A DNA stretch of 64,000 bases from an uncultured Acidobacteriota bacterium (GTDB lineage Bacteria > Acidobacteriota > UBA6911), in contig CAVRJA010000002.1 of assembly GCA_963721405.1 (NCBI GenBank), positions 115,580 to 179,579 of the forward strand, given 5' to 3'. This document shows, piece by piece, positions 17,382-50,232 of the stretch; within the stretch, counting starts at the first letter, position 1; every line of letters begins with the position of its first letter. Both the position numbers and the translations under genes were made by a program. The notes beneath the pieces are model-generated. The model was not told where the DNA came from. It saw nothing but the letters and a program-made list of their open reading frames with translations, and searched no databases.

Positions 17382-18779
17382 CTATATCTGTGGATCGCCG
17401 GCTGTGGGGAACTCCCTGGTGATGCCGTGCTTTTCCATGCGGTAGATAAAGGTCTTCCGGCTCAAATCCAGCAGTGCGGCCGCGCGCGTCTGATTCCAGC
17501 TCGATTTTTTCAGGGCCCAGAGGATCAGTTCTTTTTCGATGGCCTCCAGGCTGACTCCCATGGGGGACAGCTCGATGCGGTCGGTCTCTATCGCGGCCCG
17601 TTCGTGGCGCAGTTGCACGGGCAGGTCCTCGAGCTTGACTTCCCGGCCTTTTACCAGGACCACCAGCCGTTCGACGACGTTTTCCAGCTCGCGGACGTTT
17701 CCCGGCCATCTGTAATTGCAGAAGTAAGGTATCAGCGTCTGCGGCAGGATCAGGTCGTCGCGGCCGTGTTTTTCGCGGCTCCGGATGAAGAAGTGCTCCA
17801 CGAGTTCAGGGATGTCCTCCGGCCGCTCGCGTAGCGGTGGGATCTCCAGAGGAATCACCGCCAGACGGTAATAGAGATCTTCCCGAAAGACGCCGTCTTC
17901 CACCATGCGCAGCAGGTTGCGGTGCGTCGCCGTCACAATCCTGACATCGACCTGTTGGGTGAGGGTTGCGCCGATCTTTTCGATTTCGCCGTGCTGCAGC
18001 AGTCTCAGCAATTTGACTTGCAGGTTCGGCGGCAGGTCCCCGATTTCATCCAGGAACAGTGTTCCTCCCTCCGCCATCTCCACTTTCCCCTTTTTGTGCG
18101 CGGTCGCGCCGGTGAAGGCGCCTTTGAGGTGGCCGAACAGCTCGGATTCCAGGAGGTCCTGGGGAATCGCGGCGCAATTGATGGTAATGAAGGGATGGTC
18201 TTTGCGCGGGCTGTTGAAGTGAATCGCCTTGGCCACCAGTTCCTTTCCCGTGCCGGTTTCCCCGTGGATCAGGACGGTGGTGTTCGACTGAGCCGCGCGG
18301 GACGCCAGGTCCAGGACGTAGAGCAGCGGCCCGGAACGCCCGATGATGTTCTCGAACCCGTACTTTTCGTCGAGGCTGGACCGGAGCGTCCGCACTTCCT
18401 CCAGCAGGTGTTGGTGCGCGAGCGCCCGCTCGATGATCAGGTTCAACTCCTCGTGATTGACCGGCTTGGTAATGTAATCATAGGCGCCGGCCTTCATCGC
18501 ATCGACGGCGGTCTCGACCGTGCCGAAGGCGGTGGCTATGATGACGCTGATTTCGGGGAAGTCGGCCCGGATCTTCTTGAGGAGTTCCAGACCGGAGATG
18601 CCGGGCATCTTGAGGTCGGTGATCACGAGGTCCTGTTGAGACTCTTGCAGCATCTGCAGGGCTTTAGCACCGCCCGCGACAGCGCTGACCTCATAGCCTG
18701 CGAGTTCCAGCTGAAACTGGACGACGCGCCTCAGGCTCTCGTCGTCGTCGACCACCAGGATGCGCCCTTTGCTTTTCAT
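17382..18779 (-). CDS. Sigma-54-dependent response regulator (NtrC family)
   Basis: REC domain (ILVVDDD...DLKMPG), AAA+ Walker A GETGTGKE, GAFTGA motif, and a C-terminal Fis-type HTH (NQTRAAALLDLSRKTFIYRM). Confidence 0.9.
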   Translation of the reverse strand: MKSKGRILVVDDDESLRRVVQFQLELAGYEVSAVAGGAKALQMLQESQQDLVITDLKMPGISGLELLKKIRADFPEISVIIATAFGTVETAVDAMKAGAYDYITKPVNHEELNLIIERALAHQHLLEEVRTLRSSLDEKYGFENIIGRSGPLLYVLDLASRAAQSNTTVLIHGETGTGKELVAKAIHFNSPRKDHPFITINCAAIPQDLLESELFGHLKGAFTGATAHKKGKVEMAEGGTLFLDEIGDLPPNLQVKLLRLLQHGEIEKIGATLTQQVDVRIVTATHRNLLRMVEDGVFREDLYYRLAVIPLEIPPLRERPEDIPELVEHFFIRSREKHGRDDLILPQTLIPYFCNYRWPGNVRELENVVERLVVLVKGREVKLEDLPVQLRHERAAIETDRIELSPMGVSLEAIEKELILWALKKSSWNQTRAAALLDLSRKTFIYRMEKHGITREFPTAGDPQI

Positions 18780-19873
18780 GCGTCCTGCGCCAGGGGCAGA
18801 AGAATTGAGAAGGTCATGCCCCGATCCGGGTTGTTTCGCGCGCGCAGGATTCCGCCATGCTGGCCGACAATCTGGTGTGCGACCGCGAGTCCCAGGCCGG
18901 TGCCGCTTTCCTTGGTCGTGAAGAACGGGTTGAACAGCTTGTCCAGGTTTTCGGGATCGACTCCGCCTCCCTGGTCAATCACCTCTATCACGAGGCCGGG
19001 TTCCTCGGAACGGGCCGCGAGGCGGATCTCGCCTCCGTCCGGCATGGCCTGGATGGCATTCAGAACCAGGTTCAGAATCACCTGCTTCAGCTGCTCCCCG
19101 TCGCCGTCGAACGTCAGACCGGATGGGGAAACGTCCTTATGCAAGTGAATTGTCTTCCCCTCCGCGGCGTGCGCCACCAGGCCGATGACCGAGTCCAGAA
19201 GCGACTCCACTTTCAGCCGCTGCCGTTGCGGCGCGCGGGGCCGCGCGAAATCGAGGAGGTTCCCCAGCAGGCGGTTCAGGCGGCGGCATTCCTTCTTGAT
19301 GATTCCCAGGAACTCGACCCGATGCTCTTCCGTGACCTGCCCGCCTTCCAGGATCACGGCGGCGCCTTCAATGCTTGCGAGCGGGTTGCGGATTTCGTGC
19401 GCGAGACCCGCCGAAATATTGCCGATGGCAGCCAGCCGGTCGGCTCGTTTGAGGCGCTCGAAGCTGTCGCGCAGATCCTGGTTAGCCTGCTCCAGCTGCC
19501 TGGCCGTTTCCTCCAGTTGCGCGCGCTTCTCACGCTGCTCGTCCGCAAGGAGGCCGGTCGTCACGCCGACCAGGAAGAAGAGCACGATTTCCGCATACTG
19601 GTTGATCACATACCCGGGGAAATCGTGCCAGGCGGTGAGGATGTGCGGGATATAGCAGGCGGCCGACAGTGCCGCAGCCAGCAATCCGCCGATCCAGCCG
19701 AATGAGATCGCCGCATAGACGATCGGCAGGTAATAGAGGCGCTGGAAAATATTGTGCCAGAGAATCAGCGATGCCGGAGTGAGGTAGTGCGCAAGGCTCG
19801 TTCCAAGAATTCCCGCCACAACGAAGATGATCTGAATCCGATTGTTACCGCCCGGCTTCGTAAACATCGACAT
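18776..19873 (-). CDS. Membrane sensor histidine kinase, partner of the NtrC-like regulator
   Basis: H-box SAGLAHEIRNPL. N, G1 and G2 boxes (LNLVLNAIQA, DQGGG, GTGLGLA). Four TM helices at the N-terminus. Its TGA overlaps the regulator ATG (ATGA at 18776-18779). The start at ATG 19873 was chosen just before the first TM helix; the longer ORF to 20233 has no coding character. Confidence 0.8.
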   Translation of the reverse strand: MSMFTKPGGNNRIQIIFVVAGILGTSLAHYLTPASLILWHNIFQRLYYLPIVYAAISFGWIGGLLAAALSAACYIPHILTAWHDFPGYVINQYAEIVLFFLVGVTTGLLADEQREKRAQLEETARQLEQANQDLRDSFERLKRADRLAAIGNISAGLAHEIRNPLASIEGAAVILEGGQVTEEHRVEFLGIIKKECRRLNRLLGNLLDFARPRAPQRQRLKVESLLDSVIGLVAHAAEGKTIHLHKDVSPSGLTFDGDGEQLKQVILNLVLNAIQAMPDGGEIRLAARSEEPGLVIEVIDQGGGVDPENLDKLFNPFFTTKESGTGLGLAVAHQIVGQHGGILRARNNPDRGMTFSILLPLAQDA

Positions 19874-20133
19874 TATCCGGTGATAGGTCCACAGACAATG
19901 AGCCCAGGTTGAAATATACCAGAATCGACCGGGTATTCGGCAGCCAATGCGGATCCGGCGGTACCGCAGGGCGGAAAAGGCGACCATTGGAATTTGCCCA
20001 CCGGGATTCAATCCACAGCGCGACTCCCGGCGGGGAACCCGCTGGATAGGCCGGTCCAACGCGTCACCTTTTTGCTTGTCCCCCCGGCAGCAGTCGGTTA
20101 AGAATCCTCTTTCGTGCAGCAATCGAGATTCTG

Positions 20134-20162
20134 TAGGTCCCGTCCGGCGGCCGGGACCTACT
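20134..20162. repeat. Hairpin containing a third partial copy of the 17-kb repeat end
   Basis: gtaggtcccg-tccggcggc-cgggacctac is a 10-bp stem. The 17-mer ggcggccgggacctact occurs at both 17346-17362 and 20148-20164. Confidence 0.6.
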
Positions 20163-20225
20163 GCCGGCCAGCCGGAGGTCGACACGGTTTTTGCGGTTCC
20201 ATAGCCGAATATAAGGAGCATTCTC

Positions 20226-21488
20226 ATGCGCAATTTTCTACGTTATGGGTGCGTTGCGTCCGCTGTGCTTATGGCATCACTGGCAATCGCCGGAGGGATC
20301 GTCCAGGACAGGGGCGCTCAGCCTCCTTCACAGGCGGGCAGGGGAGCGACTCAGCAAAGACCCGCGGTGGTTTCGCCCGAAGTTCAGCAGGACCGGCGCA
20401 TCGTGTTCCGCATTTACGCACCCCAGGCGGAGAATGTGGGCCTTCAGGGCAGCGATATCACCGCAGGGTTCGGCGAAGGAGGCCGGGGCGGTCCGGGCCT
20501 GCCGGCGATGGTGAAGGGGGAAAACGGAGTCTGGGAGGTGACGGTCGGGCCGATCGAACCCGGCGCCTACCGCTACAACTTTTCAGTGAACGGGGTCGCG
20601 GTGATCGATCCCCGCAATCCATCGACCAGCGAGTCCAATACCAACACCTGGAGCCTGGTGTACGTGCCGGGCGGCGAGTTCATGGATACACGCAACGTTC
20701 CCCACGGCGCAGTGGGTTCGGTCTATTATTATTCGACCGCCCTGAAGCGGACACGCCGCATGCACATCTATACGCCGCCCGGCTATGAAACGGGAGGCGG
20801 GAAATTTCCAGTGTTTTACCTTCTGCACGGCGCCGGTGACTGTGACGATTCCTGGACTTCCGTCGGACGCGCCGGATTCATTCTCGACAACCTGATCGAG
20901 GCCGGGAAGGTGAAGCCGATGATTGTCGTCATGCCAGCGGGTCACACTACCCCAGCAGCTTTCGGGGCCAGGCCGGCGGCTCCTCCTGCAGCTGCCACCA
21001 CCGGTACGCCACAGGCGCCGCCGCGCGATGAATTCCTGGAGGACTTCCTGACCGATATCATGCCGTACGTGGAAAGGAACTACCGTGTCCTGGCCGGCCG
21101 TGCGAATCGAGCCATCGCAGGGCTTTCCATGGGCGGCAGCCAGACGCTCAACATCTCCTTTACCCAGCTTGACAAGTTCGCACATATCGGTGTTTTTAGT
21201 TCCGGGATATTGGGAGGAGGGCGTGGCGCGACCCCGGCTGCCACACCTGGAAGCCAGTGGGAACAGCAGCACCTGGCGATGCTCGACAACGCCGGCCTGA
21301 AAAAGGGCCTCAAGTTGATCTGGTTCAGTACGGGCGTGAACGACGGGCTGATCGCCAACTCCCGGAACACGGTCGATCTGCTCAAGAAACATGGTTTCAC
21401 CCCGGTTTTCAAGGAGAGTCCCGGAGCGCACACCTGGATCAACTGGCGGAACTACTTGAACGAATTCGCGCCACAATTGTTCCGGTGA
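20226..21488 (+). CDS. Secreted esterase (enterochelin/feruloyl-esterase-like alpha/beta hydrolase) with an N-terminal E-set/CBM48-like domain
   Basis: RBS AAGGAG. N-terminal domain RIVFRIYAPQAENVGLQG...NGVWEVTVGPIEPGAYRYNFSVNG. FPVFYLLHGAGD and the nucleophile elbow GLSMGG. Confidence 0.8.
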   Translation: MRNFLRYGCVASAVLMASLAIAGGIVQDRGAQPPSQAGRGATQQRPAVVSPEVQQDRRIVFRIYAPQAENVGLQGSDITAGFGEGGRGGPGLPAMVKGENGVWEVTVGPIEPGAYRYNFSVNGVAVIDPRNPSTSESNTNTWSLVYVPGGEFMDTRNVPHGAVGSVYYYSTALKRTRRMHIYTPPGYETGGGKFPVFYLLHGAGDCDDSWTSVGRAGFILDNLIEAGKVKPMIVVMPAGHTTPAAFGARPAAPPAAATTGTPQAPPRDEFLEDFLTDIMPYVERNYRVLAGRANRAIAGLSMGGSQTLNISFTQLDKFAHIGVFSSGILGGGRGATPAATPGSQWEQQHLAMLDNAGLKKGLKLIWFSTGVNDGLIANSRNTVDLLKKHGFTPVFKESPGAHTWINWRNYLNEFAPQLFR

Positions 21489-23011: not shown

Positions 23012-25513
23012 ATGGCACGGAACGGCATGAAACGGCAAGGTGAGTTCGACATGACAAAACATGAGCTCGATGCCCGCCCTATGTACCCCATGATCCGGCC
23101 GGCGACGAGTGCGGCGGCGTGCCCGTCAGTGCCTCAATGGGCAGCCCGCGGCCGGGGATTGCGTTCGACCCGATGGATCCTGAGCGCATTCGCCATTATG
23201 TGTTCTCTGGCCGTTTGCGGGGATCCCGCGTCGGCTGCGCAGAAAAAGCTCTACCGGGATAAGAACCCCCACGGCCCGATCAAGGTCCCGTGTGAAAGTT
23301 GTCACACTCTGACCAGTTGGTCTCCGATCCGCTCCCACCCCGATTTTGATCACAGTAAGACGGCGTTCCCGCTGCGCGGAATGCATGCGGGCGTGAGCTG
23401 CACGCAATGTCACACCAGCCTCGAGTTTTCCGATGCCGGAACAAAATGTGTGGATTGCCATGCAGACATTCACCGCCGGCAGTTCGGAAGCAACTGCGAG
23501 CAGTGCCACAGTGTCCAGGGATGGCGTGCGTCATTGCAGGCCGTGAACAACCACCAAAACCGGTTTCCGCTCATGGGGGCGCACGCCTCCGTCGATTGTG
23601 AATCATGCCACAAGAGCGCGGCGGTCGGCCTGTTTCGCGGCCTCGGCACTTCCTGCGTATCCTGCCACCAGGCTGACCTCCAAAAGACCAAGGCTCCGGA
23701 TCACCTGGCGGCGAAGTTTCCCACGACGTGCGAAAACTGCCACGGAATGGACAGTTGGTTTGGAGCCAGCTTCGATCACAACCAGGCGACCAGGTTCCCG
23801 CTCACGGGCATGCATGCGCAGACCGGTTGCCTGAGCTGTCACGCCGGCGGCCGCTTCGCCGGCACGCCGATGACCTGCGTCGGCTGCCACGCCGCGGATT
23901 TTTCCCATACAACGAATCCCAATCATGTAACCTCGGGGTTTTCGCAGGACTGCAGCATCTGCCACACCACCGCCAGCTGGGAGAATGCGAAGTTCGATCA
24001 CAATGCCAGCGGGTTTCCGTTAACAGGAGCTCACGCTACGGTTGCGTGCACGCAATGTCACGCGAACAATCAGTTCACGGGGATCTCCACGGCGTGCAGC
24101 TCGTGCCACCTCGCGGACTTCAATGCCACGAAAAACCCGAATCACGCTGCGTCCGGATTTCCGCAGGACTGCGCGGCCTGCCACACGACCGTCAGCTGGT
24201 CGGGCGCCGTCTTCGACCACAACAAGACGCAGTTCCCGCTGACGGGTGCACATGCCTCCGTCGACTGTTCCAAGTGTCATACGAATGGTCAATATGCCAG
24301 CACGCCGACGCAATGCGTAGCCTGCCATCTCGCGGATTTCAACGGCACCAGCAACCCCAACCATGCCGCATCCGGATTTCCTCAGGATTGCAAGGCCTGC
24401 CACACCACCGCCAGTTGGCTGGGAGCCGACTTCGACCACAGCAAGACGCAGTTCCCCCTGACAGGCGCGCACGCCACCGTCGACTGTTCGAAGTGCCACG
24501 TGAACAACGTCTTCACGGGAACTTCCACGCAATGCGTGGCCTGCCACCTGGCGGATTTCAACAACGCCAAGAACCCGGATCATGCCGCCGCAGGGTTCCC
24601 GCAGGACTGCACAACCTGCCACAGCACCACCGGTTGGCAGGGCGCATCATTCGATCACAGCAAAACGGGTTTTGCACTGACCGGAGACCACGCAACCCTG
24701 ACCTGCGTCCAGTGCCACACCAACAACCAGTATGCTGGAACGCCGGCAACCTGCGCGGGATGCCATCAGAAAGACTTTAACGGCACTTCGAATCCGAACC
24801 ATGCCCAGGCCGGATTCCCAACCGATTGCTCCCTGTGCCATTCCACAACCTCATGGCAGGGTGCGACCTTCGATCACAGCAAAACCAAGTTCCCGCTCAC
24901 GGGTGCGCACACCAACCTGCAATGCGCGAGCTGTCACGCAAACGGGCAGTATGCAACCCTGCCGACGACCTGCGTATCGTGCCATCTGGCCCAATTCAAC
25001 GGCACCACCAATCCCAACCATGCCGCCGCGGGATTCCCCCAGGATTGCTCCCTTTGCCACAACACCACTAATTTCAGCACGGCCACGTTCGATCACAGCA
25101 AGACGTCTTTCCCGTTGACGGGGGCGCATGCAAATGTCGCCTGCGCCAGTTGCCATATCGGAAACGTCTTCTCCGGGACGCCGACTGCCTGTTTTTCGTG
25201 CCACGCGGCGGATTACAAGAGCACCACGAATCCGAACCATGCCTCCGCAGGATTTCCGACCACGTGCGCGACGTGCCACACCACAACCACTTGGGCGGGA
25301 GCCACATTCAACCACACCTGGTTTCCGATGACACACGGCGGCGCCAAGATGTGCAGCGATTGCCATCAGAATGCGACCACTTACTCGGTTTTTCAGTGTA
25401 CGAATTGCCACGCTAAGACTCAAACCGACTCCCACCACAGGGGTGTCAGTGGTTATGTCTACAACAGCGCGAACTGCTATCAATGCCATCCCAGGGGAAG
25501 GGGGGACCTATGA
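23012..25513 (+). CDS. Giant multihaem c-type cytochrome with 31 CXXCH motifs
   Basis: I counted 31 CXXCH motifs in the translation. Signal-like segment RWILSAFAIMCSLAVCGDPASA. The start is uncertain: ATG 23012, 23051, 23081 and 23090 are all in frame before the signal peptide. Confidence 0.9.
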   Translation: MARNGMKRQGEFDMTKHELDARPMYPMIRPATSAAACPSVPQWAARGRGLRSTRWILSAFAIMCSLAVCGDPASAAQKKLYRDKNPHGPIKVPCESCHTLTSWSPIRSHPDFDHSKTAFPLRGMHAGVSCTQCHTSLEFSDAGTKCVDCHADIHRRQFGSNCEQCHSVQGWRASLQAVNNHQNRFPLMGAHASVDCESCHKSAAVGLFRGLGTSCVSCHQADLQKTKAPDHLAAKFPTTCENCHGMDSWFGASFDHNQATRFPLTGMHAQTGCLSCHAGGRFAGTPMTCVGCHAADFSHTTNPNHVTSGFSQDCSICHTTASWENAKFDHNASGFPLTGAHATVACTQCHANNQFTGISTACSSCHLADFNATKNPNHAASGFPQDCAACHTTVSWSGAVFDHNKTQFPLTGAHASVDCSKCHTNGQYASTPTQCVACHLADFNGTSNPNHAASGFPQDCKACHTTASWLGADFDHSKTQFPLTGAHATVDCSKCHVNNVFTGTSTQCVACHLADFNNAKNPDHAAAGFPQDCTTCHSTTGWQGASFDHSKTGFALTGDHATLTCVQCHTNNQYAGTPATCAGCHQKDFNGTSNPNHAQAGFPTDCSLCHSTTSWQGATFDHSKTKFPLTGAHTNLQCASCHANGQYATLPTTCVSCHLAQFNGTTNPNHAAAGFPQDCSLCHNTTNFSTATFDHSKTSFPLTGAHANVACASCHIGNVFSGTPTACFSCHAADYKSTTNPNHASAGFPTTCATCHTTTTWAGATFNHTWFPMTHGGAKMCSDCHQNATTYSVFQCTNCHAKTQTDSHHRGVSGYVYNSANCYQCHPRGRGDL
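23729..25279 (+). repeat. Tandem in-frame repeat: seven tri-haem modules, six consecutive periods of exactly 219 bp
   Basis: The third CXXCH of successive modules starts at 23729, 23951, 24170, 24389, 24608, 24827, 25046 and 25265. The spacings are 222, then 219 six times. Confidence 0.9.
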
Positions 25514-27303: not shown

Positions 27304-28101
27304 ATGAAGCCGACCGCCATTTCTATTCTGACCCTCGTCATGATGGGAGCGCACAGCATGCAGTTGCCGGCGGCGCGAGGAGTTGCGGGTTCCGACCTGC
27401 AGCTGGAGGAGGTTCTGGCGCATACGCGCAGGTCCGTGGAGTCATTCTGGCAGAAGATCTCCTCCGTCACATGCACAGAAACGCTGACGCAGCAAAAGAT
27501 CGGGAAGAAGGGCAAGGTTGAATTCAAACACGATTCCGTTTCTGACTACCTGTTGATTACTCATCGGAAAGGCAGCGATCTGAACCTCGAGGAATCGCGG
27601 CTGGTGAAAAAAAACGTCGACAAGTCGAAGGAGCGGCCGCTCCTGACGACCAACGGTTTTTCCACTCTGCTCCTGGTTTTCCATCCGCGCTACCGGGACA
27701 GCTACCGTTTTTACCTGGATGGGGACGATTTGATCGACGGGAAGAGGCTGATTCGGGTTCGATACGAACACGTCGCCGGGACGCCCTCGACGTCCGCTCT
27801 GGAGCTTCGAGGGCGGGTATATCCCTTGGACATGGAGGGAGTCGCATGGATTGATCCGGACACACAGGCGATCAGGAGAGTGAAGGCGGAGTTGAAGGCG
27901 CCCATGGACGACCTGAATCTCAAGGCGTTCTATGCCGTCGTGGACTACCGGCCGCAGCGGTTTGCCTCTTCCTCCGAGGTTTTCTGGCTCCCGTCTACCG
28001 CCGCGATCGACATCGAGACTGCGCGCCAGCACTGGCGGAATGTCCATCGTTTTGCGGACTACAAGCGGTTCTCGGTTGAAGAGAGGATAATATCGAAATG
28101 A
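27304..28101 (+). CDS. Secreted protein of unknown function in the cytochrome operon
   Basis: RBS GGAGAAAGGGAG. Signal-like N-terminus. There is a 12-nt gap to the upstream gene and an ATGA overlap with the downstream gene. I recognise no motif. Confidence 0.7.
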   Translation: MKPTAISILTLVMMGAHSMQLPAARGVAGSDLQLEEVLAHTRRSVESFWQKISSVTCTETLTQQKIGKKGKVEFKHDSVSDYLLITHRKGSDLNLEESRLVKKNVDKSKERPLLTTNGFSTLLLVFHPRYRDSYRFYLDGDDLIDGKRLIRVRYEHVAGTPSTSALELRGRVYPLDMEGVAWIDPDTQAIRRVKAELKAPMDDLNLKAFYAVVDYRPQRFASSSEVFWLPSTAAIDIETARQHWRNVHRFADYKRFSVEERIISK

Positions 28102-29090: not shown

Positions 29091-30614
29091 TCATCGAGCG
29101 GCAATATCCGCCTGGGAAGTTGCCGGGATCCCTGTCTGACTGCCGCCAGGTTTTGCGATTACAAATATCTCCCCGCCTTCGCTGCAGACGTAGAAATCGC
29201 CGCCCTTAATCGCCAGACCGGTCGGGCGCACGAGGCCGGAGACCGAATGCGCCGCCACGACCGAGTGCCCGGCCAGATCAATCGTTATGAGCAGATTGTA
29301 GGCGGCACTCACGGCATGCAGCAGACCGTTTTCAACGGCAGCCCCGGTCACGAACAACTCGTCCAGCGAACGTTTATCGCCGCTGAACGTGATGCCCGAC
29401 GCGGCGGCAATCGCCGGCGCGAACTCTTCCGACAAAGTCAGATCGCGCCTGTCGAAGCGTGAGACCACCAGCCGTTTGAATTTTGAATTGGGCACCGTGA
29501 CGGTGTAGAGCGAATTCGCCGCCGGGTCGAACGCCAGCGACATCACGTACATCATGCGGGCGCGCACCGTGCCCAGGCGGGATCGCGACACTTCCTCAAA
29601 CCGGTCGAAAGACTCGAGAAAGTAGCGGAAGTTCTTGTCCGCGTCCGCCCCGTCTTTCTCGCTTAGAACCACGTAGCTCTTGTTTTCGCCCAGTGCCATT
29701 ACCGTCCGGCCGTCGAGAAACGCCGCGCCGGCAAACTTCCCGAGATCAATCGAGAAGCCGGGATCCACTATGGTATAGCGCAGGATGCGGGTCAGGGAGC
29801 CGTCGACGATGTAGACGCCATTTTGCGTGGTCAGGAGAAAGCGGTCGGTACCGGCGTCGTAAGCGAGGTCGGTCGCGGTTCCGCGAAGGGGCAGGTCCAG
29901 ACGCTTGCGCTCCTTGATCGAAAGTATCGGGAGGTTTGCCAGGGGGCCGGAGCCGGGATCAGCAGGCGCGGCGTCGACGGCAGGCTTTTCGATCGCCCAT
30001 CGACCGCGCAGCGAGATCGGAACCGGCGACCACTCGTCGAGAGACCAGACCCAGTGTTTCGGGTTGAACGAGAAACGAATGGGATCGCCCTGCCCCACGA
30101 AGGGGGGCGGGCCGGTGCTGGCGAATGCCTGGACGATGTTTCCGGCGATCACGACCAGAAACACTACCGTTGCGAGCCTTTCCGGCGGACGCAGCGACCG
30201 TGGCATCCCCGGGGCCTCAGTCCCCTTGAAAATCATGAGCAGCACGCCCATGGTCACGACGCATACCCAAAAAATGAATAGAGCCCAGGTATAGGTGTGC
30301 GCGCCCATGATCTCGGTGCTGAAGCCTTGTCCGACGTCGCGCGCCGCGTGCATCCCGGTGTGGCGCAGGCTCATGAAGACGCCCCAGCCGCCGACGAGCA
30401 CGGAAAGCCCGATGTATTTCGGCCGCGCGCCGTAGCGCAGCACGAAAAGGCCGATGAGCGCGATGATCGCCATTCCGGTGCGCTGTTCCCAGCACATCAC
30501 GCATGGCGAGTCGCCATAGACGAAACCCAGTAGAAAGACCGCGGTGCCGATCGGTACCACCGCCAGGACCAGCACCGCGAAGGCCAGAAAGGTATACACA
30601 CGATCACTTCTCAT
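29091..30614 (-). CDS. DsbB-family membrane thiol oxidoreductase fused to a ~330-aa beta-rich (propeller-like?) C-terminal domain
   Basis: The N-terminus has 4 TM helices with DSPCVMCWEQR, matching the DsbB PC-x-x-C..(E/Q)R motif. A fifth TM helix is followed by a long extracytoplasmic domain. RBS GGAGGGA. Confidence 0.75.
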   Translation of the reverse strand: MRSDRVYTFLAFAVLVLAVVPIGTAVFLLGFVYGDSPCVMCWEQRTGMAIIALIGLFVLRYGARPKYIGLSVLVGGWGVFMSLRHTGMHAARDVGQGFSTEIMGAHTYTWALFIFWVCVVTMGVLLMIFKGTEAPGMPRSLRPPERLATVVFLVVIAGNIVQAFASTGPPPFVGQGDPIRFSFNPKHWVWSLDEWSPVPISLRGRWAIEKPAVDAAPADPGSGPLANLPILSIKERKRLDLPLRGTATDLAYDAGTDRFLLTTQNGVYIVDGSLTRILRYTIVDPGFSIDLGKFAGAAFLDGRTVMALGENKSYVVLSEKDGADADKNFRYFLESFDRFEEVSRSRLGTVRARMMYVMSLAFDPAANSLYTVTVPNSKFKRLVVSRFDRRDLTLSEEFAPAIAAASGITFSGDKRSLDELFVTGAAVENGLLHAVSAAYNLLITIDLAGHSVVAAHSVSGLVRPTGLAIKGGDFYVCSEGGEIFVIAKPGGSQTGIPATSQADIAAR

Positions 30615-33292: not shown

Positions 33293-34015
33293 TCACTTTG
33301 CGTCAGTCAGACCAGCGAGGAGGCGGTCGAGAAAGTCCTTGAGGGCGGGGTAAGGGATCGCACCATTGATGCGTTGTTCGCGGCCGGACTTGGTGCTGAT
33401 GAAGAAGGTGGGGGTGGAGGTGATACTGCGGCTTTCCGCGAGCAGCACCTCCTGTTGAACGGCGGCATCAATCGCGGGATCACCCGCCATCCGCACTACA
33501 CGCATCAACTGCGTCGGGTTCAACGCCTTTGACAGGGCGGGCTCGAAATTTCCGTTGGCGGACCACTGCTCCTGATTCTTGTAAAACTCGTCAGTCACCC
33601 GCAGCCATTCCTCCCGGCCGAGACGGGCGGCCGCAAGTGCCAGACGGGCGGCAGGCCGGGCGAATTGATGCATCTCCAACGGCAGATCATGGTAGACCAC
33701 GCTGACCTTTTGCGTCCCCGCGTAGTCCGCGACGATGGGCTTCACAGTCTCGAGGTAAAATTCCTTGCAGCGCGGGCACTGATAATCCGAAAACACTTCG
33801 ATTCGCACCAGGGATCCCGGTTCGCCGCCGAGGTAGAGTTCCTCCTGCCCGCTGCCGGCCGCCGGCGGCGGCACGAGCCGGACGCCCGGCGGGGTGACCG
33901 CTGCCTTGTCCGCAGGCCGGTCGTTCCGGCATCCGGCCACCGCCCAGGTCAGGAAAATAATCGGGATCACCCACAAAAGCCGGTTCCGGCGCTTCGCGGT
34001 CTCTGCCATTTCCAT
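33293..34015 (-). CDS. DsbA-like thioredoxin-fold lipoprotein
   Basis: Lipobox WAVAGC, active site CPRC (FSDYQCPRCKEF), and TPTFFI (cis-Pro loop region). Confidence 0.8.
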   Translation of the reverse strand: MEMAETAKRRNRLLWVIPIIFLTWAVAGCRNDRPADKAAVTPPGVRLVPPPAAGSGQEELYLGGEPGSLVRIEVFSDYQCPRCKEFYLETVKPIVADYAGTQKVSVVYHDLPLEMHQFARPAARLALAAARLGREEWLRVTDEFYKNQEQWSANGNFEPALSKALNPTQLMRVVRMAGDPAIDAAVQQEVLLAESRSITSTPTFFISTKSGREQRINGAIPYPALKDFLDRLLAGLTDAK

Positions 34016-34313: not shown

Positions 34314-34586
34314 TCAGCTGTCGATGTGGACGGAATCCACGATGCCCACAATGACCGAGATGACGCAGGCGTCGGGATTCCCGAGCACCTGGCGAGCGCC
34401 GTTCCCTTCGCGATTCACGAGCACTGTGTCGCCGACTCCCGCCTGCGTGTTGTCGAGGGCGATGAAATCCGCATCGGGCGATTCATCTTCGAGCCCCAGC
34501 GGCTGCACCACCAGCAAGCGGCGGTTCTTGTAATCCCGGTGGCCGATGGTCGTCACCACGGTGCCCACTACTCTTGCCAGTATCAT
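34314..34586 (-). CDS. BMC-P pentameric vertex protein (EutN/CcmL/PduN family), copy 3
   Basis: MILARVVGTVVTT...RRLLVVQPL...ALDNTQAGVGDTVLV..G..AR... Confidence 0.9.
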   Translation of the reverse strand: MILARVVGTVVTTIGHRDYKNRRLLVVQPLGLEDESPDADFIALDNTQAGVGDTVLVNREGNGARQVLGNPDACVISVIVGIVDSVHIDS

Positions 34587-34595
34587 CGCCGGCTC

Positions 34596-34916
34596 TTACG
34601 CATAGTTGTTCCAGCCGCGTTTCATGACCAGATCGAACATATGGTCGGGGTGGACGCACAATTCATCGACGACTCCCACCAGCGCCAGGTCGACGGGCAC
34701 AAACTTCACATCGGGCATCGCGAGGGCCGCTTCGCGCGATCGCACCATTAAACAGAGATCTCCAGTGCCGGCGTCCACGACGTCCGCCGCCACCTGGAGC
34801 GGTCCCGCCGGCTCCATTTTCTTGTTCAGCGGCTGTACCACCAGCAGTTTCAACCCCTCGGTGCCCGGGTACTTGATGGTGCAGACTGCCGTTCCCCTGA
34901 CTCTGCCGAACAACAT
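34596..34916 (-). CDS. BMC-P vertex protein (EutN/CcmL family), copy 2, with a C-terminal extension
   Basis: MLFGRVRGTAVCTIKYPGTEGLKLLVVQPL...AADVVDAGTGDLCLMVRSREAA... Confidence 0.85.
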   Translation of the reverse strand: MLFGRVRGTAVCTIKYPGTEGLKLLVVQPLNKKMEPAGPLQVAADVVDAGTGDLCLMVRSREAALAMPDVKFVPVDLALVGVVDELCVHPDHMFDLVMKRGWNNYA

Positions 34917-34921
34917 ATAAG

Positions 34922-35317
34922 CTATTTCATTCCCGTACTTTTCAGTACGCGTTTTATGATCACATCCAGCAGGTTCGCATCGACTTGCGTTCCGAGTCGG
35001 GCCGCCACCGCATCGCGTATGTGCTGCTGCAATTCGCTCCCTTCGTCCTTGCCTGCCTCAGGACAGCCCTGAGAAGGCGCACCCGGGAGGGCGCCCACCG
35101 GAGAGGCGGAGGGCGCCGCCGGCATTTTTGAAATGTAGGGGCGAACCGGGGCGGCGGGCGGCGTGTCCGGCTTGTCGTGCACCAGTTTCATCCCTTTCGA
35201 TCGGGCTTTCTCGTATGCCAGTTCGGTCAGTACGACCCTGTCGTTGAGTTCCAGCGACAGGATGCCGCGCTTGACCATGTCCTCAATGTCTTTCTCGGTA
35301 TAAAACTCTCTGGGCAT
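34922..35317 (-). CDS. BMC-locus protein of unknown function: folded N-terminal module, Pro/Ala linker and C-terminal amphipathic helix
   Basis: The ATG at 35317 follows AGGAG. MPREFYTEKDIEDMVKRGILSLELNDRVVLTELAYEKARSKGMKLV, then PDTPPAAPVRP...PAAPSASP, then ELQQHIRDAVAARLGTQVDANLLDVIIKRVLKS. Confidence 0.65.
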   Translation of the reverse strand: MPREFYTEKDIEDMVKRGILSLELNDRVVLTELAYEKARSKGMKLVHDKPDTPPAAPVRPYISKMPAAPSASPVGALPGAPSQGCPEAGKDEGSELQQHIRDAVAARLGTQVDANLLDVIIKRVLKSTGMK

Positions 35318-35351
35318 ATACACTCCTGGCCAAATCTCTTCGGAATTCGCA

Positions 35352-35981
35352 TCAGGCGCCGGCTCGACCCGGCAGGCTTTCCAGCGCCTGGACGGCCGCA
35401 TTCCTGGCCGTCAGGATCTCAGCCTCCGTCCCGGAGAGCCACAAGCGGCCGAATCTCCCCACGGACGACACATGAACAATCTTGATGCTCGCGGTCTTTT
35501 CCGCCTCGTTGCAGGCGAAATTAATGTAGGCCGCGGGGGCGCATTCCAGCACCAGCATCGTTTCCCCGGGGACGAGCATGCTGCCGCGGCGGAACCGGTT
35601 CAGCAACTGCGCCTGGTACGGATCGATGCGGGTGATGACCTGGGTGGAAACTACCAGCGGCCTGATTCGGTCTTCAACGCTGAGGCCGAGACGGTCAAGA
35701 ACCACGCTTCCTGCCTCGAGAACAGAGGCCTGGCTGAGCGAGTGCACCTCGAACATGCCGAATTCCCGCTCGACGATCTGCGCACCCGGCCTGGCCTCTG
35801 TCGCCTTCACGGCAATATCCACCACGCGGAACACCTCGTTTCCCGGGGCCATCTCCACGTAAAGAGCCGCCATCCCTTCGGTCGGCAGGTCCCCCTGGGT
35901 CACGGTGCCGATGAACGCGGCGAATTGCGGTTGCATGCGGTCGAGGTAGCAGTAACAGCGCAGCGAAAGAGCTTCACCCAT
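35352..35981 (-). CDS. BMC-T tandem-domain shell protein
   Basis: About 209 aa with two BMC-like halves (..ALYVEMAPGNEVFRVVDIAVKATEARPG.. and ..MLVLECAPAAYINFACNEAEKTASIKIV..). Confidence 0.75.
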   Translation of the reverse strand: MGEALSLRCYCYLDRMQPQFAAFIGTVTQGDLPTEGMAALYVEMAPGNEVFRVVDIAVKATEARPGAQIVEREFGMFEVHSLSQASVLEAGSVVLDRLGLSVEDRIRPLVVSTQVITRIDPYQAQLLNRFRRGSMLVPGETMLVLECAPAAYINFACNEAEKTASIKIVHVSSVGRFGRLWLSGTEAEILTARNAAVQALESLPGRAGA

Positions 35982-36017
35982 GATCTGACTCCATTCAGCA
36001 CTATTGACTTGTGTCGT

Positions 36018-36236
36018 TCAATGCCATTCCCCGGCCAGAGGCAACCCAGTCCCGTCCAGCACGACGAGCACGAGATAAGCGGTCCCCAGATCCACCCCCA
36101 CTCTCAGCTTCCGTCCCGCCTCGAGCTTCAAAGGCGGAGCGGTCTCCGAAAGTTGTCGGGGAAGGATCGAGACCTCCGCGCGAGTCAGGTACCGGGCGAG
36201 GCTCATGCCTGCCGGCAAGCGTCCGTTCGTCGTCAC
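36018..36236 (-). pseudogene. EutJ-like (actin/Hsp70-fold ATPase) N-terminal remnant
   Basis: ...KLRVGVDLGTAYLVLVVLDGTGLPLAGEWH* carries only the phosphate-1 motif. A full EutJ is about 280 aa by my recollection. The next gene starts 36 nt downstream, so the remainder is deleted. Start is GTG. Confidence 0.45.
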
Positions 36237-36278
36237 AACTGCACCCCGGAATTTTCCACAAGTCTGAATGCCGGCCGG

Positions 36279-36605
36279 CTACTTGCCTTCCGGACTGCGG
36301 CCGCCGATGGTCCCCTTGCTGCTCTTCGGCAGGATCATCTCCACGTCGGAGTGCGGCCGCGGAATGACGTGCACGGAAGTCAGCTCGCCGACACGCTTGG
36401 CAGCCGCTGCGCCGGCGTCAGTCGCGGCTTTGACGGCGCCGACATCCCCGCGCACCATCACGGTCACGTAGCCGCCGCCCACATACTCCGAGCCGATCAG
36501 GACCACGTTCGCGGCCTTGACCATCGCGTCCGCAGCCTCGATGGCGCCGACCAACCCGCGTGTCTCCACCATTCCAAGAGCGATCACAGAACTGTCGAAT
36601 GCCAT
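36279..36605 (-). CDS. BMC-H hexameric shell protein (PduA/EutM/CcmK family)
   Basis: [30 protein letters not shown]...[23 protein letters not shown]. The ATG at 36605 follows AGGAAGGAAG; the alternative ATG at 36629 would add 8 aa. Confidence 0.9.
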
Positions 36606-36650
36606 GTCTTCCTTCCTTTCATTAGTCAATGACTTCCCTGCACTTCATGA

Positions 36651-38114
36651 TCAGCCAACATGTCTTGTTGCCAGAACCTCGCGCACGACCTGCTGGACCA
36701 GACGCTCAATCTCCTCCGGGGACGGCCCGGTGGGGACCTCGCCCCGCTGGAAGGCCTCCAGAGGCGGGGCAGCGGTTGCATATGCCAGTCTCTTGATGTT
36801 GATCAGATGCGATGCTGTGATGTTGTCGCCGGTGATAGCGCCGCCGAGACCGCCCGAGCCCAGGGTCATGGAGGGCATCACTCCGGTCGTCAGCCCGACC
36901 GCGCCCAGCGTCCCCATCGTGTTCACGAGGATTCTGAAGACCGGCTTTTCCAGGCCGAAGGCCATGATAATGCGGTCATCGCTGGCGTGGATGATCTGAG
37001 TGTGGCCACGGCCGCCGCTTTCAAGGATGGCAATGGAAGTGTCGCAGCCCTGCTCCCACCCGTCGACCTCGTACCAGCCGAGCACCGTGGTCAGTTTTTC
37101 CAGGGAGAGCGGCTCGTCCTTACCCACCTTCCGGAGCGGCGTCACGAGAATTCGCGCCTCGGGCGGGATGCGGAAGCCTGCATAGGCCGCCACATGCGCG
37201 GCCGACTTTCCGACTATGGCCGTGTTGATGCTCCGGTCGGGATGGAAGACCGCCTGGCGCAGCGCGTCGGTCTCCTGCGGATTCGTGAAATAGGCGCCCT
37301 CTGCCCGCATGACTTCGGCCAATCGTCCCGCGACCGGCCGGTCCGCGACGACCGATTGTTCGGTGGCGCAGATTGTGGAGAAATCAAACGCCTTGGAGGC
37401 AACGATGTAGCGCCCGGCCTTTTCGAGGTCGGCGCTCCGGTCCACGTAGACTGGCACGTTCCCCGGCCCCACGCCGTATGCCGGTTTGCCCGTGCTGTGG
37501 GCCGCCCTTACCATCGCGGTCCCGCCTGTAGCAAGGATGATTGCGGTGTGGCGGTGACGCATCAGCTCCTGAGTCCCCGGCAGGGATACCTGCCGCATGC
37601 AGCCGATCAATCCCTGGGGCGCGCCTGCAGCCTCGGCAGCCGTCGCCATGGTCCGCGTCGCCTCGTGGGTGCAGCGCACGGCGGCCGGATGAGGGGCAAT
37701 GATGATGCCGTTGCGCGCCTTGACGGAGATCAGGATCTTGTTGAATGCCGTCGACGTCGGGTTGGTGGAAGGGACCAGAGCCGTCACCACGCCCATCGGA
37801 GATGCAATTTCGTACAAGCGGCGGTCAGGATCGTGGCGGAGGATACCCACGCTCCTCAGGTCGCGGATGCTTTGCCACACGCCGCGCGAGCCGAATTCGT
37901 TCTTCAGTTTCTTGTGCGCGGCAACTCCATACCCGGTCTCCTCCTGCGCCATCCGCCCGATCCGCTCGGACGCCTGGTATCCGGCTTCGGCCATCGCCTC
38001 GCAAACACGGTCCACCTCGGCCTGCGACGCCCGGCTCCAGGTTTTCCAGGCCTCGTGAGAAGCGTTGGCCAGGTCGCGCGCCTCCTGGATCGATGAAAGG
38101 TCATTGTCGAGCAT
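36651..38114 (-). CDS. CoA-acylating aldehyde dehydrogenase (EutE/PduP-like) with a C-terminal encapsulation-peptide-like helix
   Basis: [22 protein letters not shown] and the catalytic-Cys region [12 protein letters not shown]. The tail is [27 protein letters not shown] at 38114. Confidence 0.9.
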
Positions 38115-38268
38115 GGTGGTCTTCGTCCTCGATGCGGCCGGGACGCCGGACAGAGCCGTGAGCGTGAGCCAGCGGGTGCGCGCAAGGCCCGATCTCAATT
38201 CGGCCGTGCGCTCTCTTGTGCCCGCTTACAGACGCGCGCGGCACTGTTGTACGTGCCATGTCGCAGGG

Positions 38269-38562
38269 TCACCTCGTTTTTCGGAATACGACGGACCCGT
38301 CCACTTCCAGCGAATCGATCACGGACATGATCACCGCATCGACCGGAGTGTCCTTCGTGATGTTCGTCTGCCTGGCCGACGAGCCGGCGCAGGTGAGCAC
38401 CAGGTCGCCGACACCCGAGTCCACCGTGTCGACGGCCACATAGGGCTTGCCGGCCGGGTTGCCCTGCTCGTCCGCCGGCCGGACGACGAGCAGTTTCCGG
38501 CCCACAAGCTTCTCATCCTTGATGGTCGAGACCGTGGTCCCTATGACTCTGGCTATCAGCAT
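38269..38562 (-). CDS. BMC-P vertex protein (EutN/CcmL family), copy 1
   Basis: MLIARVIGTTVSTIKDEKLVGRKLLVVRPAD...AVDTVDSGVGDLVL. Confidence 0.9.
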   Translation of the reverse strand: MLIARVIGTTVSTIKDEKLVGRKLLVVRPADEQGNPAGKPYVAVDTVDSGVGDLVLTCAGSSARQTNITKDTPVDAVIMSVIDSLEVDGSVVFRKTR

Positions 38563-38578
38563 GACAGGCCTCCCGGAA

Positions 38579-39505
38579 CTAATAATTCCTGCCGACGGCG
38601 GCAGCCTCGGTGGACTTCCCGGCGGAGGGGCCCTGAATGATCTTGACCCCCGCGCTGGCGCCGATGCGCGTGGCGCCGGCTTTGATCATGTTTTCGGCGT
38701 CCGCATACGTGCGCACGCCACCGGCGGCCTTCACCCCCATTCCCGGACCCACGACCCGGCGCATCAGCGCCACATCGTGGACGGTCGCGCCGCCGCTCGC
38801 GAAGCCGGTCGATGTCTTCACGAAATCGGCGCCGGCTTCCTTTGAAAGCAGGCAGGCAATTGTCTTCTCCTCGTCCGTCAGGAGCACCGCTTCGATGATC
38901 ACTTTGACGATCGCACTGCGGGCGTGAGCCGCGGTTACGACCCAAATGATGTCCCGCGCGACCAACTCCAGGTCGCGCGCTTTGAGGGCGCCGATGTTGA
39001 TCACCATGTCGATCTCCGTTGCACCGTGCTCGAGGGCGGTCTGACATTCGAAAGCCTTGACCTCAGGCGACGTCGCCCCGAGCGGAAAGCCGATGACGGT
39101 GCACACCTTGACGGGAGATCCCTCGAGGAGTTGCGCGCTCAGCTTCACCCACGTCGGGTTGATGCACACGGAGGCGAAGCCGTACTTGCGCGCTTCGAAG
39201 CAGAGCTGGGCGATCTGGTCCGGGGTCGCCTCAGGTTTGAGAAGCGTGTGATCGATCATCTTCGACAGACTCATGTCCTGCGGGATCACGCCGATGGTCG
39301 ACGACAGCCGCTCCGCACCGGCGCTTACGACGCTGCCTGCGCGGTCGAAACAGGTTCGAACGCACATCCCTTCCGCGCAGTCGAACTTGCACTGGCCGCA
39401 TCCGGCGGGCGCCTTGGCCCGTTCCTGCTTCTCCATCATGGCCACCAACACTTCGCGGGCGATGACTTCGACGAGTTGTTCCGCGGTTCTAATGTCCGGG
39501 ATCAT
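38579..39505 (-). CDS. deoC: Deoxyribose-phosphate aldolase (DERA) with an ~85-aa N-terminal extension (amphipathic helix plus five-Cys motif)
   Basis: The core has [43 protein letters not shown] and the Schiff-base Lys region FVKTSTGF. The extension is [19 protein letters not shown]...[17 protein letters not shown]. Confidence 0.9.
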
Positions 39506-39515
39506 GGAATAGCCC

Positions 39516-40106
39516 CTACTTTAAATACAGTTTCTCGATCGCCGTGATCTTGTCGACACGCCGGGCATGGCGTCCCCCGCCGTACCCAGTCGACAGCCAG
39601 GTCTTGACGATTTGTTTGGCGAGGTTGACGCCGATCAGGCCGGCCCCCAGGGTCAGCACGTTTGTGTCGTTGTGCTCGCGGCCGTTTACCGCAGTGGAAT
39701 AGTCATAAGCCATCCCTGCGCGTACGCCGGGGAGCTTGTTGGCCACGATGCAGCTGCCGATGCCGGCGCCGTCGATGACGATTCCCCGCCAGGCCTTCCC
39801 CATGCTGACCAGATGAGCAACCTGATGGGCAAAATCGGGATAATCCACCGCCTCTTTGCTGTTGGTCCCGGTGTCGATGACATCAAATCCCATCCCGGCC
39901 AGGTCCGCCTTCAGGGTTTCCTTCAGATCGAAGCCGCCATGGTCGGCCCCGATGGCGACGATTTTGAGTTCCGGGATTTGAGGTTCGGCCTGAGGCGCAG
40001 TTTCCTCAGGGCGCGGCGCATCGGGGCTGGCAGCAGAGAGCCCCAAGGCCTGGTTGAGCACTCGCTGTACGATTTGCCGGATTTCCGTATCAGACTGGTC
40101 GCTCAT
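39516..40106 (-). CDS. rpiB: RpiB/LacAB-family sugar-phosphate isomerase with an N-terminal encapsulation-peptide-like extension
   Basis: The core is [16 protein letters not shown]...DYPDFA...[21 protein letters not shown]...[13 protein letters not shown]. The extension is [19 protein letters not shown] plus a Pro/Ala/Glu linker. Confidence 0.9.
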
Positions 40107-50222: not shown

Positions 50223-50232
50223 AGGAATCGAG

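Follow-up and report, generated by a model that had tools for sequence, protein, structure and literature searches.

Acidobacteriota dominate many soils and peats, and whether they respire on extracellular acceptors such as minerals or humic matter is still open, with a bearing on carbon turnover and the suppression of methane (bioRxiv 10.64898/2026.05.27.727921). A preprint on peat has described acidobacterial electron-transfer clusters, but these are other systems, built on cytochromes of 8-13 haems (bioRxiv 10.64898/2026.05.27.727921). The question raised here is what purpose is served by a gene for a c-type cytochrome with 31 haem-binding motifs, found in a 64,000-nucleotide stretch of DNA from an uncultured Acidobacteriota bacterium of the lineage UBA6911 (GenBank assembly GCA_963721405.1, contig CAVRJA010000002.1, positions 115,580 to 179,579 of the forward strand). 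This whole stretch is referred to as the window, and positions are counted from its first letter. The favoured answer, held with moderate confidence, is that the gene and its downstream neighbours encode a trans-envelope electron conduit of a soil Acidobacterium, in which an exported 31-haem rod would act together with an outer-membrane barrel and an inner-membrane protein (IMP). The cassette is abundant yet carries no functional annotation, and it is unlike the 8-13-haem clusters described for these phyla.

The open reading frame (ORF) of the cytochrome codes for 833 amino acids from its first ATG and contains 31 CXXCH motifs, as seen in an ORF and motif scan; the same scan found no CX3CH, CX4CH or CXXCK motif in the protein. 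The haems are arranged as one leading unit (NPHG...CESCH) followed by ten tri-haem modules (1 + 10 x 3), with ten occurrences of the order His, His, haem a, haem b, His, haem c. The third CXXCH of successive modules starts at positions 23729, 23951, 24170, 24389, 24608, 24827, 25046 and 25265, giving one spacing of 222 bp and then six of exactly 219 bp. A preliminary description of this DNA had reported the 219-bp periodicity, and all of the motif positions and spacings that it listed are reproduced exactly. It had also counted seven tri-haem modules; seven canonical copies are indeed present, but the array is longer, as divergent modules lie on both flanks (68 + 78 amino acids on the N-terminal side and 70 on the C-terminal side) and the leading haem unit precedes them.

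The six modules of 73 amino acids (residues 319-756) are 55-74% identical to one another in protein and 58-74% in DNA, with the consensus.T..w..A.FDH.kt.FpLTGaHa...C..CH.n.......t.C..CH.adfn.t.NPnHA..GFP.dC..CH. This mutual similarity indicates that the period stems from homologous duplication and not from chance. As the modules have drifted apart in DNA, Tandem Repeats Finder recovers just 2.6 copies (24104-24667, period 219, 76% matches). The array requires 24.5 residues per haem, and the protein contains 12.0% Thr, 8.4% Ser, 11.7% Ala and 7.4% Gly.

The true start of the gene is uncertain, with candidate codons at 23012, 23027 and 23051. In a related contig of 95% identity the gene caller picks the start equivalent to 23027, which yields a protein of 828 amino acids, and an exact-sequence database look-up of the protein from the starts at 23012 and 23051 returned no match. 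The N-termini of homologues are informative as to the fate of the product. A type-I signal peptide is present in 88 of 89, ending ...A.A before a Q just ahead of the NPHG unit, and a lipobox in one of the 89; the mature N-terminus bears a conserved [NSTR]PHG motif. The type-I signal peptides and the near-total lack of a lipobox suggest that the cytochrome is exported and soluble and is no lipoprotein. Long ORFs in other frames also lie inside 23126-25489, for example 23728-24780 (+), 24020-24622 (-) and 24851-25489 (-). These are probably not genes, since repetitive coding sequence of about 60% G+C yields long spurious ORFs.

Tandem repeats are able in principle to mislead short-read assemblers, and the preliminary description had regarded this one as a hazard for assembly. 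That the near-equal modules were made by collapse or expansion of the repeat is nevertheless the most improbable of all the explanations weighed here. Exact repeats within the cytochrome gene reach 18 bp at most, and the copies differ in DNA to the degree given above. An independently assembled metagenome contig (ENA ERZ27266623, locus L082) is colinear with the window at 95% nucleotide identity over 9.2 kb, without insertions or deletions. Its 828-residue cytochrome aligns to that of the window without gaps, has 31 haems and stands in the same neighbourhood. The short maximum repeat and the colinear contig together make an error of the assembler very unlikely, so that the suspected hazard does not materialize, and orthologues in other genomes have intact reading frames that follow one rule of haem number (3m+1). 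The age of the copies can be judged from their codons. Where modules share a conserved residue, they use the same codon in a fraction of 0.44-0.65 of cases, and 0.46 is expected from the codon usage of the gene. This is near the expectation for saturated synonymous sites, and the earlier view of old, diverged DNA copies holds.

The ligation of the haems was assessed on 2,081 modules taken from 186 homologues of the cytochrome. In every one of these modules (2,081/2,081) the segment from haem c to haem a includes two or more His and that from haem b to haem c one or more, and the exact 2-0-1 pattern is found in 86%. The three conserved extra His per module noted in the window protein are thus a property of the family. 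Modules without any Met number 1,606 of the 2,081 (77%), and the module alignment has no conserved Met. The window protein has 35 His outside the motifs to serve its 31 haems, in agreement with the earlier count that enough His are present to ligate every haem on both sides. Given these His and Met statistics, the most parsimonious reading is that each haem has bis-His ligation. The haems would then all be low-spin and the role of the protein probably electron transfer and not catalysis. Some multihaem cytochromes, such as the nitrite or hydroxylamine oxidoreductases, do catalyse, and a catalytic role, such as the reduction of some soluble substrate, was therefore considered. It appears highly improbable, as no CXXCK or other atypical motif and no non-cytochrome domain is present, each haem has a candidate distal His, and the matches of a module profile to NrfA and HAO-type structures in the PDB are insignificant.

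The Pfam matches exceed their thresholds and place the cytochrome among the class III multihaem cytochromes: PF14522 (Cytochrome_C7) scores 119.8 bits (cut-off 24.8) in nine stretches, PF14537 85.3 bits (cut-off 25) and PF02085 76.7 bits (cut-off 22.9). The NCBIfam model TIGR04257 (nanowire_3heme) reaches 38.6 bits, just under its cut-off of 40, in one stretch only (residues 744-801), and matches none of the canonical modules of the window cytochrome. The module profile, built from 66 diverse modules, gave its best, weak matches in the PDB to the 16-haem HmcA (1Z1N, 1.3e-5), OmcS (4.4e-4) and 19HC (5e-4), and only E ~0.1 to the GSU1996 structures 3OV0 and 1RWJ. An alignment of the profile with PpcA by hhalign had a probability of 4.6%. 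The idea that the module is a strict c7 domain was dropped on this negative result. The module thus appears to be a distant derivative of class III (c3/c7) and no canonical c7 domain. Two registers are possible for it. The Pfam and TIGR04257 alignments are c7-like (c, His, His, a, b) and those to HmcA and the nine-haem cytochrome (9Hc) c3-like (a, b, His, c), and the tally of His to haems closes in either register.

Database proteins that match the cytochrome number more than 7,855. The named homologues belong to Acidobacteria (Bryobacteraceae, Sulfotelmatobacter), Gemmatimonadetes, Ignavibacteria and Bacteroidetes, with ‘hypothetical’ as their label. Among complete orthologues that adjoin a barrel gene, each protein has 22, 25, 28, 31, 34, 37, 40, 43, 46, 55, 58, 61, 64, 67, 76 or 85 haems, i.e., 3m+1 for a module number of 7 to 28. 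The one exception is a 15-haem ORF of 467 amino acids (L013), which passed the completeness filter yet breaks the rule. The largest orthologue, from a Bryobacterales metagenome-assembled genome (MFD01872.bin.2.86; L017:3603-10037), carries its 85 CXXCH motifs in one ORF of 2,145 amino acids directly upstream of the barrel gene. Other long orthologues, also of the 3m+1 form, have 76 haems (L005) or 67 (L012 and L044).

The preliminary description had taken the strict module length to be a structural ruler. Among 45 orthologues, however, the period is 73 (202 occurrences), 74 (180), 75 (57), 76 (4), 78 (5), 72 (3) or 71 (1) amino acids. It is often constant inside one protein, e.g., eleven 75s in a row or five 78s. 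Most of the variation in length lies in the segment from haem c to haem a (30-38 residues), with the a-to-b (about 16) and b-to-c (about 25) segments near-fixed. The strict 73 residues of the window gene are therefore a feature of its lineage and no ruler of the whole family. The proposal of an old duplication and no recent expansion stands in part only. Positional orthologues exist for modules 1 and 2 and for the final one, with identities of 55-67% between first modules and 51-62% between second ones, whereas internal modules 4-8 are 56-73% identical mutually and at most 67% identical to any orthologue module. This likeness, together with the range of module numbers, indicates an array with a dynamic core, whose modules are gained, lost or homogenized in the course of evolution.

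The cytochrome gene is the first of a conserved cassette of four. It is coupled in translation to the barrel gene, whose ATG shares bases with its stop codon (CTATGA, with the ATGA at 25510-25513), and the third and fourth genes encode a secreted protein of 265 amino acids and the IMP. The barrel protein has a signal peptide and is predicted to fold into a small N-terminal beta domain and about 22 strands. Its AlphaFold2 (AF2) model has a predicted local distance difference test score (pLDDT) of 73.3, with 22 strands across residues 183-582. A Foldseek search with this model returned outer-membrane barrels only (E ~1e-9), at low TM-scores of 0.3-0.45, including ushers, OccK, AlgE and TonB-dependent receptors; the top matches are FimD and PapC (0.26-0.37). 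The protein has no Pfam or NCBIfam family. Its homologues number 1,757, none of them named, and the family comprises 1,452 cluster representatives. One homologue is 96% identical and likewise of 593 amino acids, and the C-terminus of another orthologue reads ...MGYRF.

Some barrel homologues are longer (P0362-P0370, P0373 and P0390, 750-1150 amino acids). These carry an N-terminal AMIN-like domain and a linker of 300-500 amino acids rich in Ala, Pro, Ser and Thr, followed by the small beta domain, which is duplicated in P0362, and the barrel. The possibility that the long homologues (919-1153 amino acids) are cytochrome-porin fusions was ruled out, as their extensions are without CXXCH and are made of AMIN-like domains and low-complexity linkers.

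The 265-residue protein has no sequence match in Pfam, NCBIfam or the PDB. The IMP has hydrophobic segments at about residues 27-55, 68-97, 110-138 and 290-319 and a weaker one at about 136-160. It contains two WX3HX13H motifs (W111LDFH-x13-H129 and W291HVIH-x13-H309) and an SGXXG motif (S151GMVG), and it matches the Ferric_reduct family below threshold (E 0.014). From these motifs, the IMP is probably a di-haem b-type electron carrier.

The conservation of this gene order was followed in 81 loci, made up of 80 kept from 428 barrel-profile loci in species-representative genomes and the earlier locus L001. The labels of the 80 are nearly all Acidobacteriota (Terriglobia, Bryobacterales, Terriglobales), with two Acidimicrobiia or Actinomycetota. 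The cytochrome gene directly precedes the barrel gene in 79 of the 81, the gene for the 265-residue protein directly follows it in 74, and the IMP gene keeps its place in 67; several of the missing genes belong to loci that stop near the barrel gene. Outside this set, a cultured member of the Bacteroidota, Emticicia oligotrophica DSM 17448, has the cassette on its plasmid pEMTOL02 (NC_018749.1, L083:7300-16782; genes EMTOL_RS21090-RS22055). The order there is ccsA, a homologue of the IMP with the same WX3HX13H and SGXXG motifs, an NAD(P)-binding Fe-S protein, a 23-haem cytochrome, a modular 40-haem cytochrome, a barrel homologue and a GW-domain protein. The 40-haem protein, annotated as ‘cytochrome c3 family protein’, shares 42% identity with the window cytochrome. 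The location on a plasmid suggests horizontal mobility of the cassette, and this cultured carrier is tractable for genetics.

A second cytochrome, with 23 CXXCH and about 640-750 amino acids, lies upstream of the modular one in some loci (L014, L020, L028, L031, L036, L047, L050, L052, L053, L056, L067 and L078). It is without the NPHG and GYVYNS end motifs, and the window has no copy of it. It may correspond to the ‘periplasmic’ cytochrome of the porin-cytochrome clusters termed PCC3, which are compared further below.

The following route would account for this arrangement. The cytochrome would be translated together with the barrel, the secreted 265-residue protein and the IMP. The IMP, putatively with two b haems, would give electrons to the quinone pool or take them from it, and the 31-haem rod would conduct them across the periplasm. 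Sheathed or anchored by the barrel, the rod would pass the outer membrane, and electrons would go to or come from an extracellular partner, be it a mineral, humic matter or another cell. In the structure of the Geobacter protein GSU1996 there is about 1 nm per haem, and by analogy the rod of 31 haems would be about 25-30 nm long. The module number of 7-28 in orthologues would set the reach of the wire or its charge capacity.

A different use for the same protein has been considered. It has been proposed that the periplasmic ‘nanowires of haems’ of Geobacter act as capacitors (PMC10138318), and a soluble tandem tri-haem protein with a signal peptide and no lipobox is built like them. The window cytochrome could accordingly be a periplasmic electron store, with the barrel gene serving another purpose, and a variable module number would scale the capacity of such a store. 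This is judged unlikely, since the overlap of stop and start codons and the position of the cytochrome gene upstream of the barrel gene in nearly all loci favour a physical partnership of the two products. Storage and conduction are, moreover, compatible with each other.

Slightly less likely again is a secreted extracellular wire, for which the barrel would be a dedicated, usher-like export pore and anchor, with the rod mostly outside and another carrier in the periplasm. The pilus ushers FimD and PapC head the Foldseek matches of the barrel model, but they do so at low TM-scores and in the company of many unrelated barrels, and there is no evidence that barrels of this kind export folded cytochromes. 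The larger cytochrome of PCC3 is predicted to be extracellular (PMC5566968), and orthologues of up to 85 haems would far exceed the periplasm in length. The 23-haem cytochrome of some related loci could provide the periplasmic link; the 64-kb window, however, has no second multihaem cytochrome for this task.

With these alternatives set aside as the lesser ones, the trans-envelope conduit remains the preferred explanation. The tandem array, the family matches and the neighbourhood all fit a haem wire, so that the earlier suggestion of a modular, nanowire-like rod is retained for its wire character, whereas its rod shape is inferred only. Three observations weigh against the conduit. One ORF only in the window has at least two CXXCH motifs, versus two in PCC3 and in some related loci. 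The source names of cassette family members are all ‘hypothetical’, generic or automatic, with no member experimentally characterized. The AF2 model of the cytochrome is of moderate quality only, with a pLDDT of 70.6 (70-88 in the modules) and a predicted TM-score of 0.33, and a Foldseek search with it against the PDB gave no match. A search of the PDB with the whole protein sequence of the cytochrome likewise gave none.

A bolder form of the proposal is offered tentatively and with clearly less confidence than the conduit itself. In this form, the four genes would be a self-contained machine for extracellular electron transfer, in which one polypeptide wire runs from a ferric-reductase-like, di-haem-b IMP through a dedicated 22-strand barrel to the outside. 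If so, gain and loss of modules of 73-75 amino acids would adjust in evolution how far the wire extends, between 22 and 85 haems or about 20-80 nm. The single cytochrome of the version in the window would replace the multi-cytochrome relay of Shewanella and Geobacter, and the cassette would be widespread in the Acidobacteriota of soil and peat and sporadic elsewhere, as on the Bacteroidota plasmid. Arrays of 7-28 modules offer, in any case, a natural length series in which conductance or the spanning of the envelope can be compared with haem number. The coordinates of the cassette and its parts are collected in Table 1.

Table 1. Features of the 31-haem cytochrome gene and its cassette in the window, with the evidence for each.
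Feature	Position	Strand	Evidence
31-haem c-type cytochrome gene	23012..25513	+	31 CXXCH; PF14522/PF14537/PF02085; >7,855 homologues
N-terminal leader, Sec-type signal peptide ...WILSAFAIMCSLAVCGDPASA, predicted cleavage before AQKK	23012..23236	+	Candidate starts; homologue N-termini
Leading unit NPHGPIKVPCESCH, one His and haem 1	23264..23305	+	Equals the last third of a module
Modules 1 and 2, 68 + 78 amino acids, haems 2-7	23306..23743	+	Divergent; beyond the range of the preliminary description
Modules 3-9, one of 74 and six of 73 amino acids, haems 8-28	23744..25279	+	Reported 219-bp periodicity
Module 10, 70 amino acids, haems 29-31, ...GYVYNSANCYQCH	25280..25489	+	Divergent; conserved at homologue C-termini
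Outer-membrane beta-barrel protein, 593 amino acids	25510..27291	+	ATGA overlap; AF2; Foldseek
Secreted 265-amino acid protein, third cassette gene	27304..28101	+	Conserved; strong Shine–Dalgarno sequence GGAGAAAGGGAG before the start
Inner-membrane protein (IMP), 319 amino acids	28098..29057	+	ATG overlaps the stop of the 265-amino acid gene (ATGA)
TPR protein, 238 amino acids	22152..22868	+	Pfam TPR families

The gene for a TPR protein precedes the cytochrome gene. Its product matches PF23914 (TPR_CcmH_CycH) at 34.5 bits, under the cut-off of 42, and is 43% identical to the product of a TPR gene in the L001 cassette; a homologue flanks 21 of the 81 loci. On this basis, it is possibly an accessory or biogenesis factor. 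Further upstream, the minus strand encodes a histidine kinase together with a sigma-54-dependent response regulator (17382-20233), ahead of the esterase, TPR and cytochrome genes. A search for sigma-54 (-24/-12) promoters returned 24 matches versus 28 expected, with none at the cassette, and scans for sigma-70 promoters and terminators near the cassette were uninformative.

Downstream of the cassette, a minus-strand gene (29091-30614) encodes a DsbI-like protein, in which a DsbB domain is joined to a large C-terminal domain; it scores 315 bits with NF050065, for which the cut-off is 800. Its membership in the cassette was rejected, as no homologue flanks the 81 loci, and it is adjacent in L082 only. 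Together with a DsbA/thioredoxin-like protein (33293-34015, minus strand) it flanks the cassette in the window, and the pair is not syntenic elsewhere. A bacterial-microcompartment-like locus follows at about 34400-40100 on the minus strand, with an aldehyde dehydrogenase, a DeoC/LacD aldolase, RpiB and a GntR/UTRA regulator. Its shell genes were called on L082 (EutN/CcmL twice and CsoS1D_N). On the plus strand, positions 48474-53907 encode a Nuo51-like FMN/Fe-S subunit and then a fusion protein of 1,232 amino acids with 2Fe-2S, pyridine-nucleotide-disulphide oxidoreductase, 4Fe-4S and molybdopterin domains. These two genes look like a formate-dehydrogenase-type or bifurcating oxidoreductase.

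Among the known systems, the closest in design are the monomeric nanowire cytochromes of Geobacter sulfurreducens, GSU1996 and GSU0592 (12 haems each) and GSU2210 (27 haems), of the type of PDB 3OV0, in which tandem c7-type tri-haem domains of about 70-80 amino acids are likewise joined in one polypeptide. Tandem tri-haem domains in a single exported polypeptide are also what the window cytochrome possesses, with its ten modules and signal peptide. Both kinds are soluble and exported, have a very low residue-to-haem ratio and belong to the class III superfamily. Studies of GSU1996 have described a linear array of 12 haems with edge-to-edge distances of 3-5 Å and one His-Met haem in each domain (PMC10138318). 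The modules here have three conserved His and mostly no Met in place of such a haem. The window protein also differs in falling under the TIGR04257 cut-off and matching that model at its C-terminus only, and in its 3m+1 haems, leading unit, conserved end modules and barrel and IMP neighbours.

The neighbourhood is most reminiscent of the PCC3 clusters, a bioinformatic proposal for Fe(II)-oxidizing and other Proteobacteria (He et al. 2017, PMC5566968; Gallionellaceae pangenome, PMC9900912). These comprise a porin, two cytochromes (one periplasmic and one extracellular) and, in the inner membrane, a protein of about 300 amino acids (PMC5566968). The inner-membrane protein of PCC3 and PCC4 has five transmembrane (TM) helices, with SGXXG on TM4 and WX3HX13H on TM3 and TM5, and two b haems have been proposed for it (PMC5566968). 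Periplasmic cytochromes of PCC3 consist of 7-8 repeats, each of about 67-70 amino acids, and carry 21, 24 or 27 haems (PMC5566968; PMC9900912). In the window, too, a barrel gene adjoins a gene for a haem-rich, repetitive cytochrome rich in Thr, Ser, Ala and Gly, the motif set of the IMP is identical in form at a similar length, and the predicted strand number of the barrel is that of the PCC3 porin of L. cholodnii (22). The differences are that PCC3 has two cytochromes where the window has one, that the description of PCC3 contains no gene for the 265-residue protein, that its haems number 3m and not 3m+1, and that the period is another. The likeness is one of architecture and motifs as described in the papers; the homologues listed in this comparison all came from near acidobacterial relatives. 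PCC3 is reported mostly in Proteobacteria, and the literature searched contained no paper linking it to Acidobacteriota.

With MtrCAB and MtoAB (Shewanella, Sideroxydans), the cassette shares the concept of a multihaem cytochrome that crosses the outer membrane insulated by a barrel. The components themselves are distinct. The window cytochrome falls outside the decahaem DmsE/MtrA family, at 31.1 bits with TIGR03508 and a cut-off of 192.2. The MtrB barrel has 26 strands, compared with about 22 in the window barrel and its lack of a Pfam or NCBIfam family. An MtrC-like lipoprotein is absent, and a match of the cytochrome to PF22113 (50 bits) spans residues 195-358 only.

The best solved relatives are HmcA (1Z1N, 1GWS) and the nine-haem cytochrome c (19HC) of Desulfovibrio, which are concatenated, c3-like and bis-His-ligated. 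They form compact globular bodies from tetra- and tri-haem c3 domains, with no regular 73-residue period, and the window protein scores 52 bits with the NCBIfam HmcA model, for which the cut-off is 400. The Desulfovibrio cytochromes are partners of membrane redox complexes of sulfate reducers and not of barrels. Taken together, these comparisons indicate that the cassette is an uncharacterized variant of the tri-haem nanowires of Geobacter and of the PCC3-type porin-cytochrome clusters.

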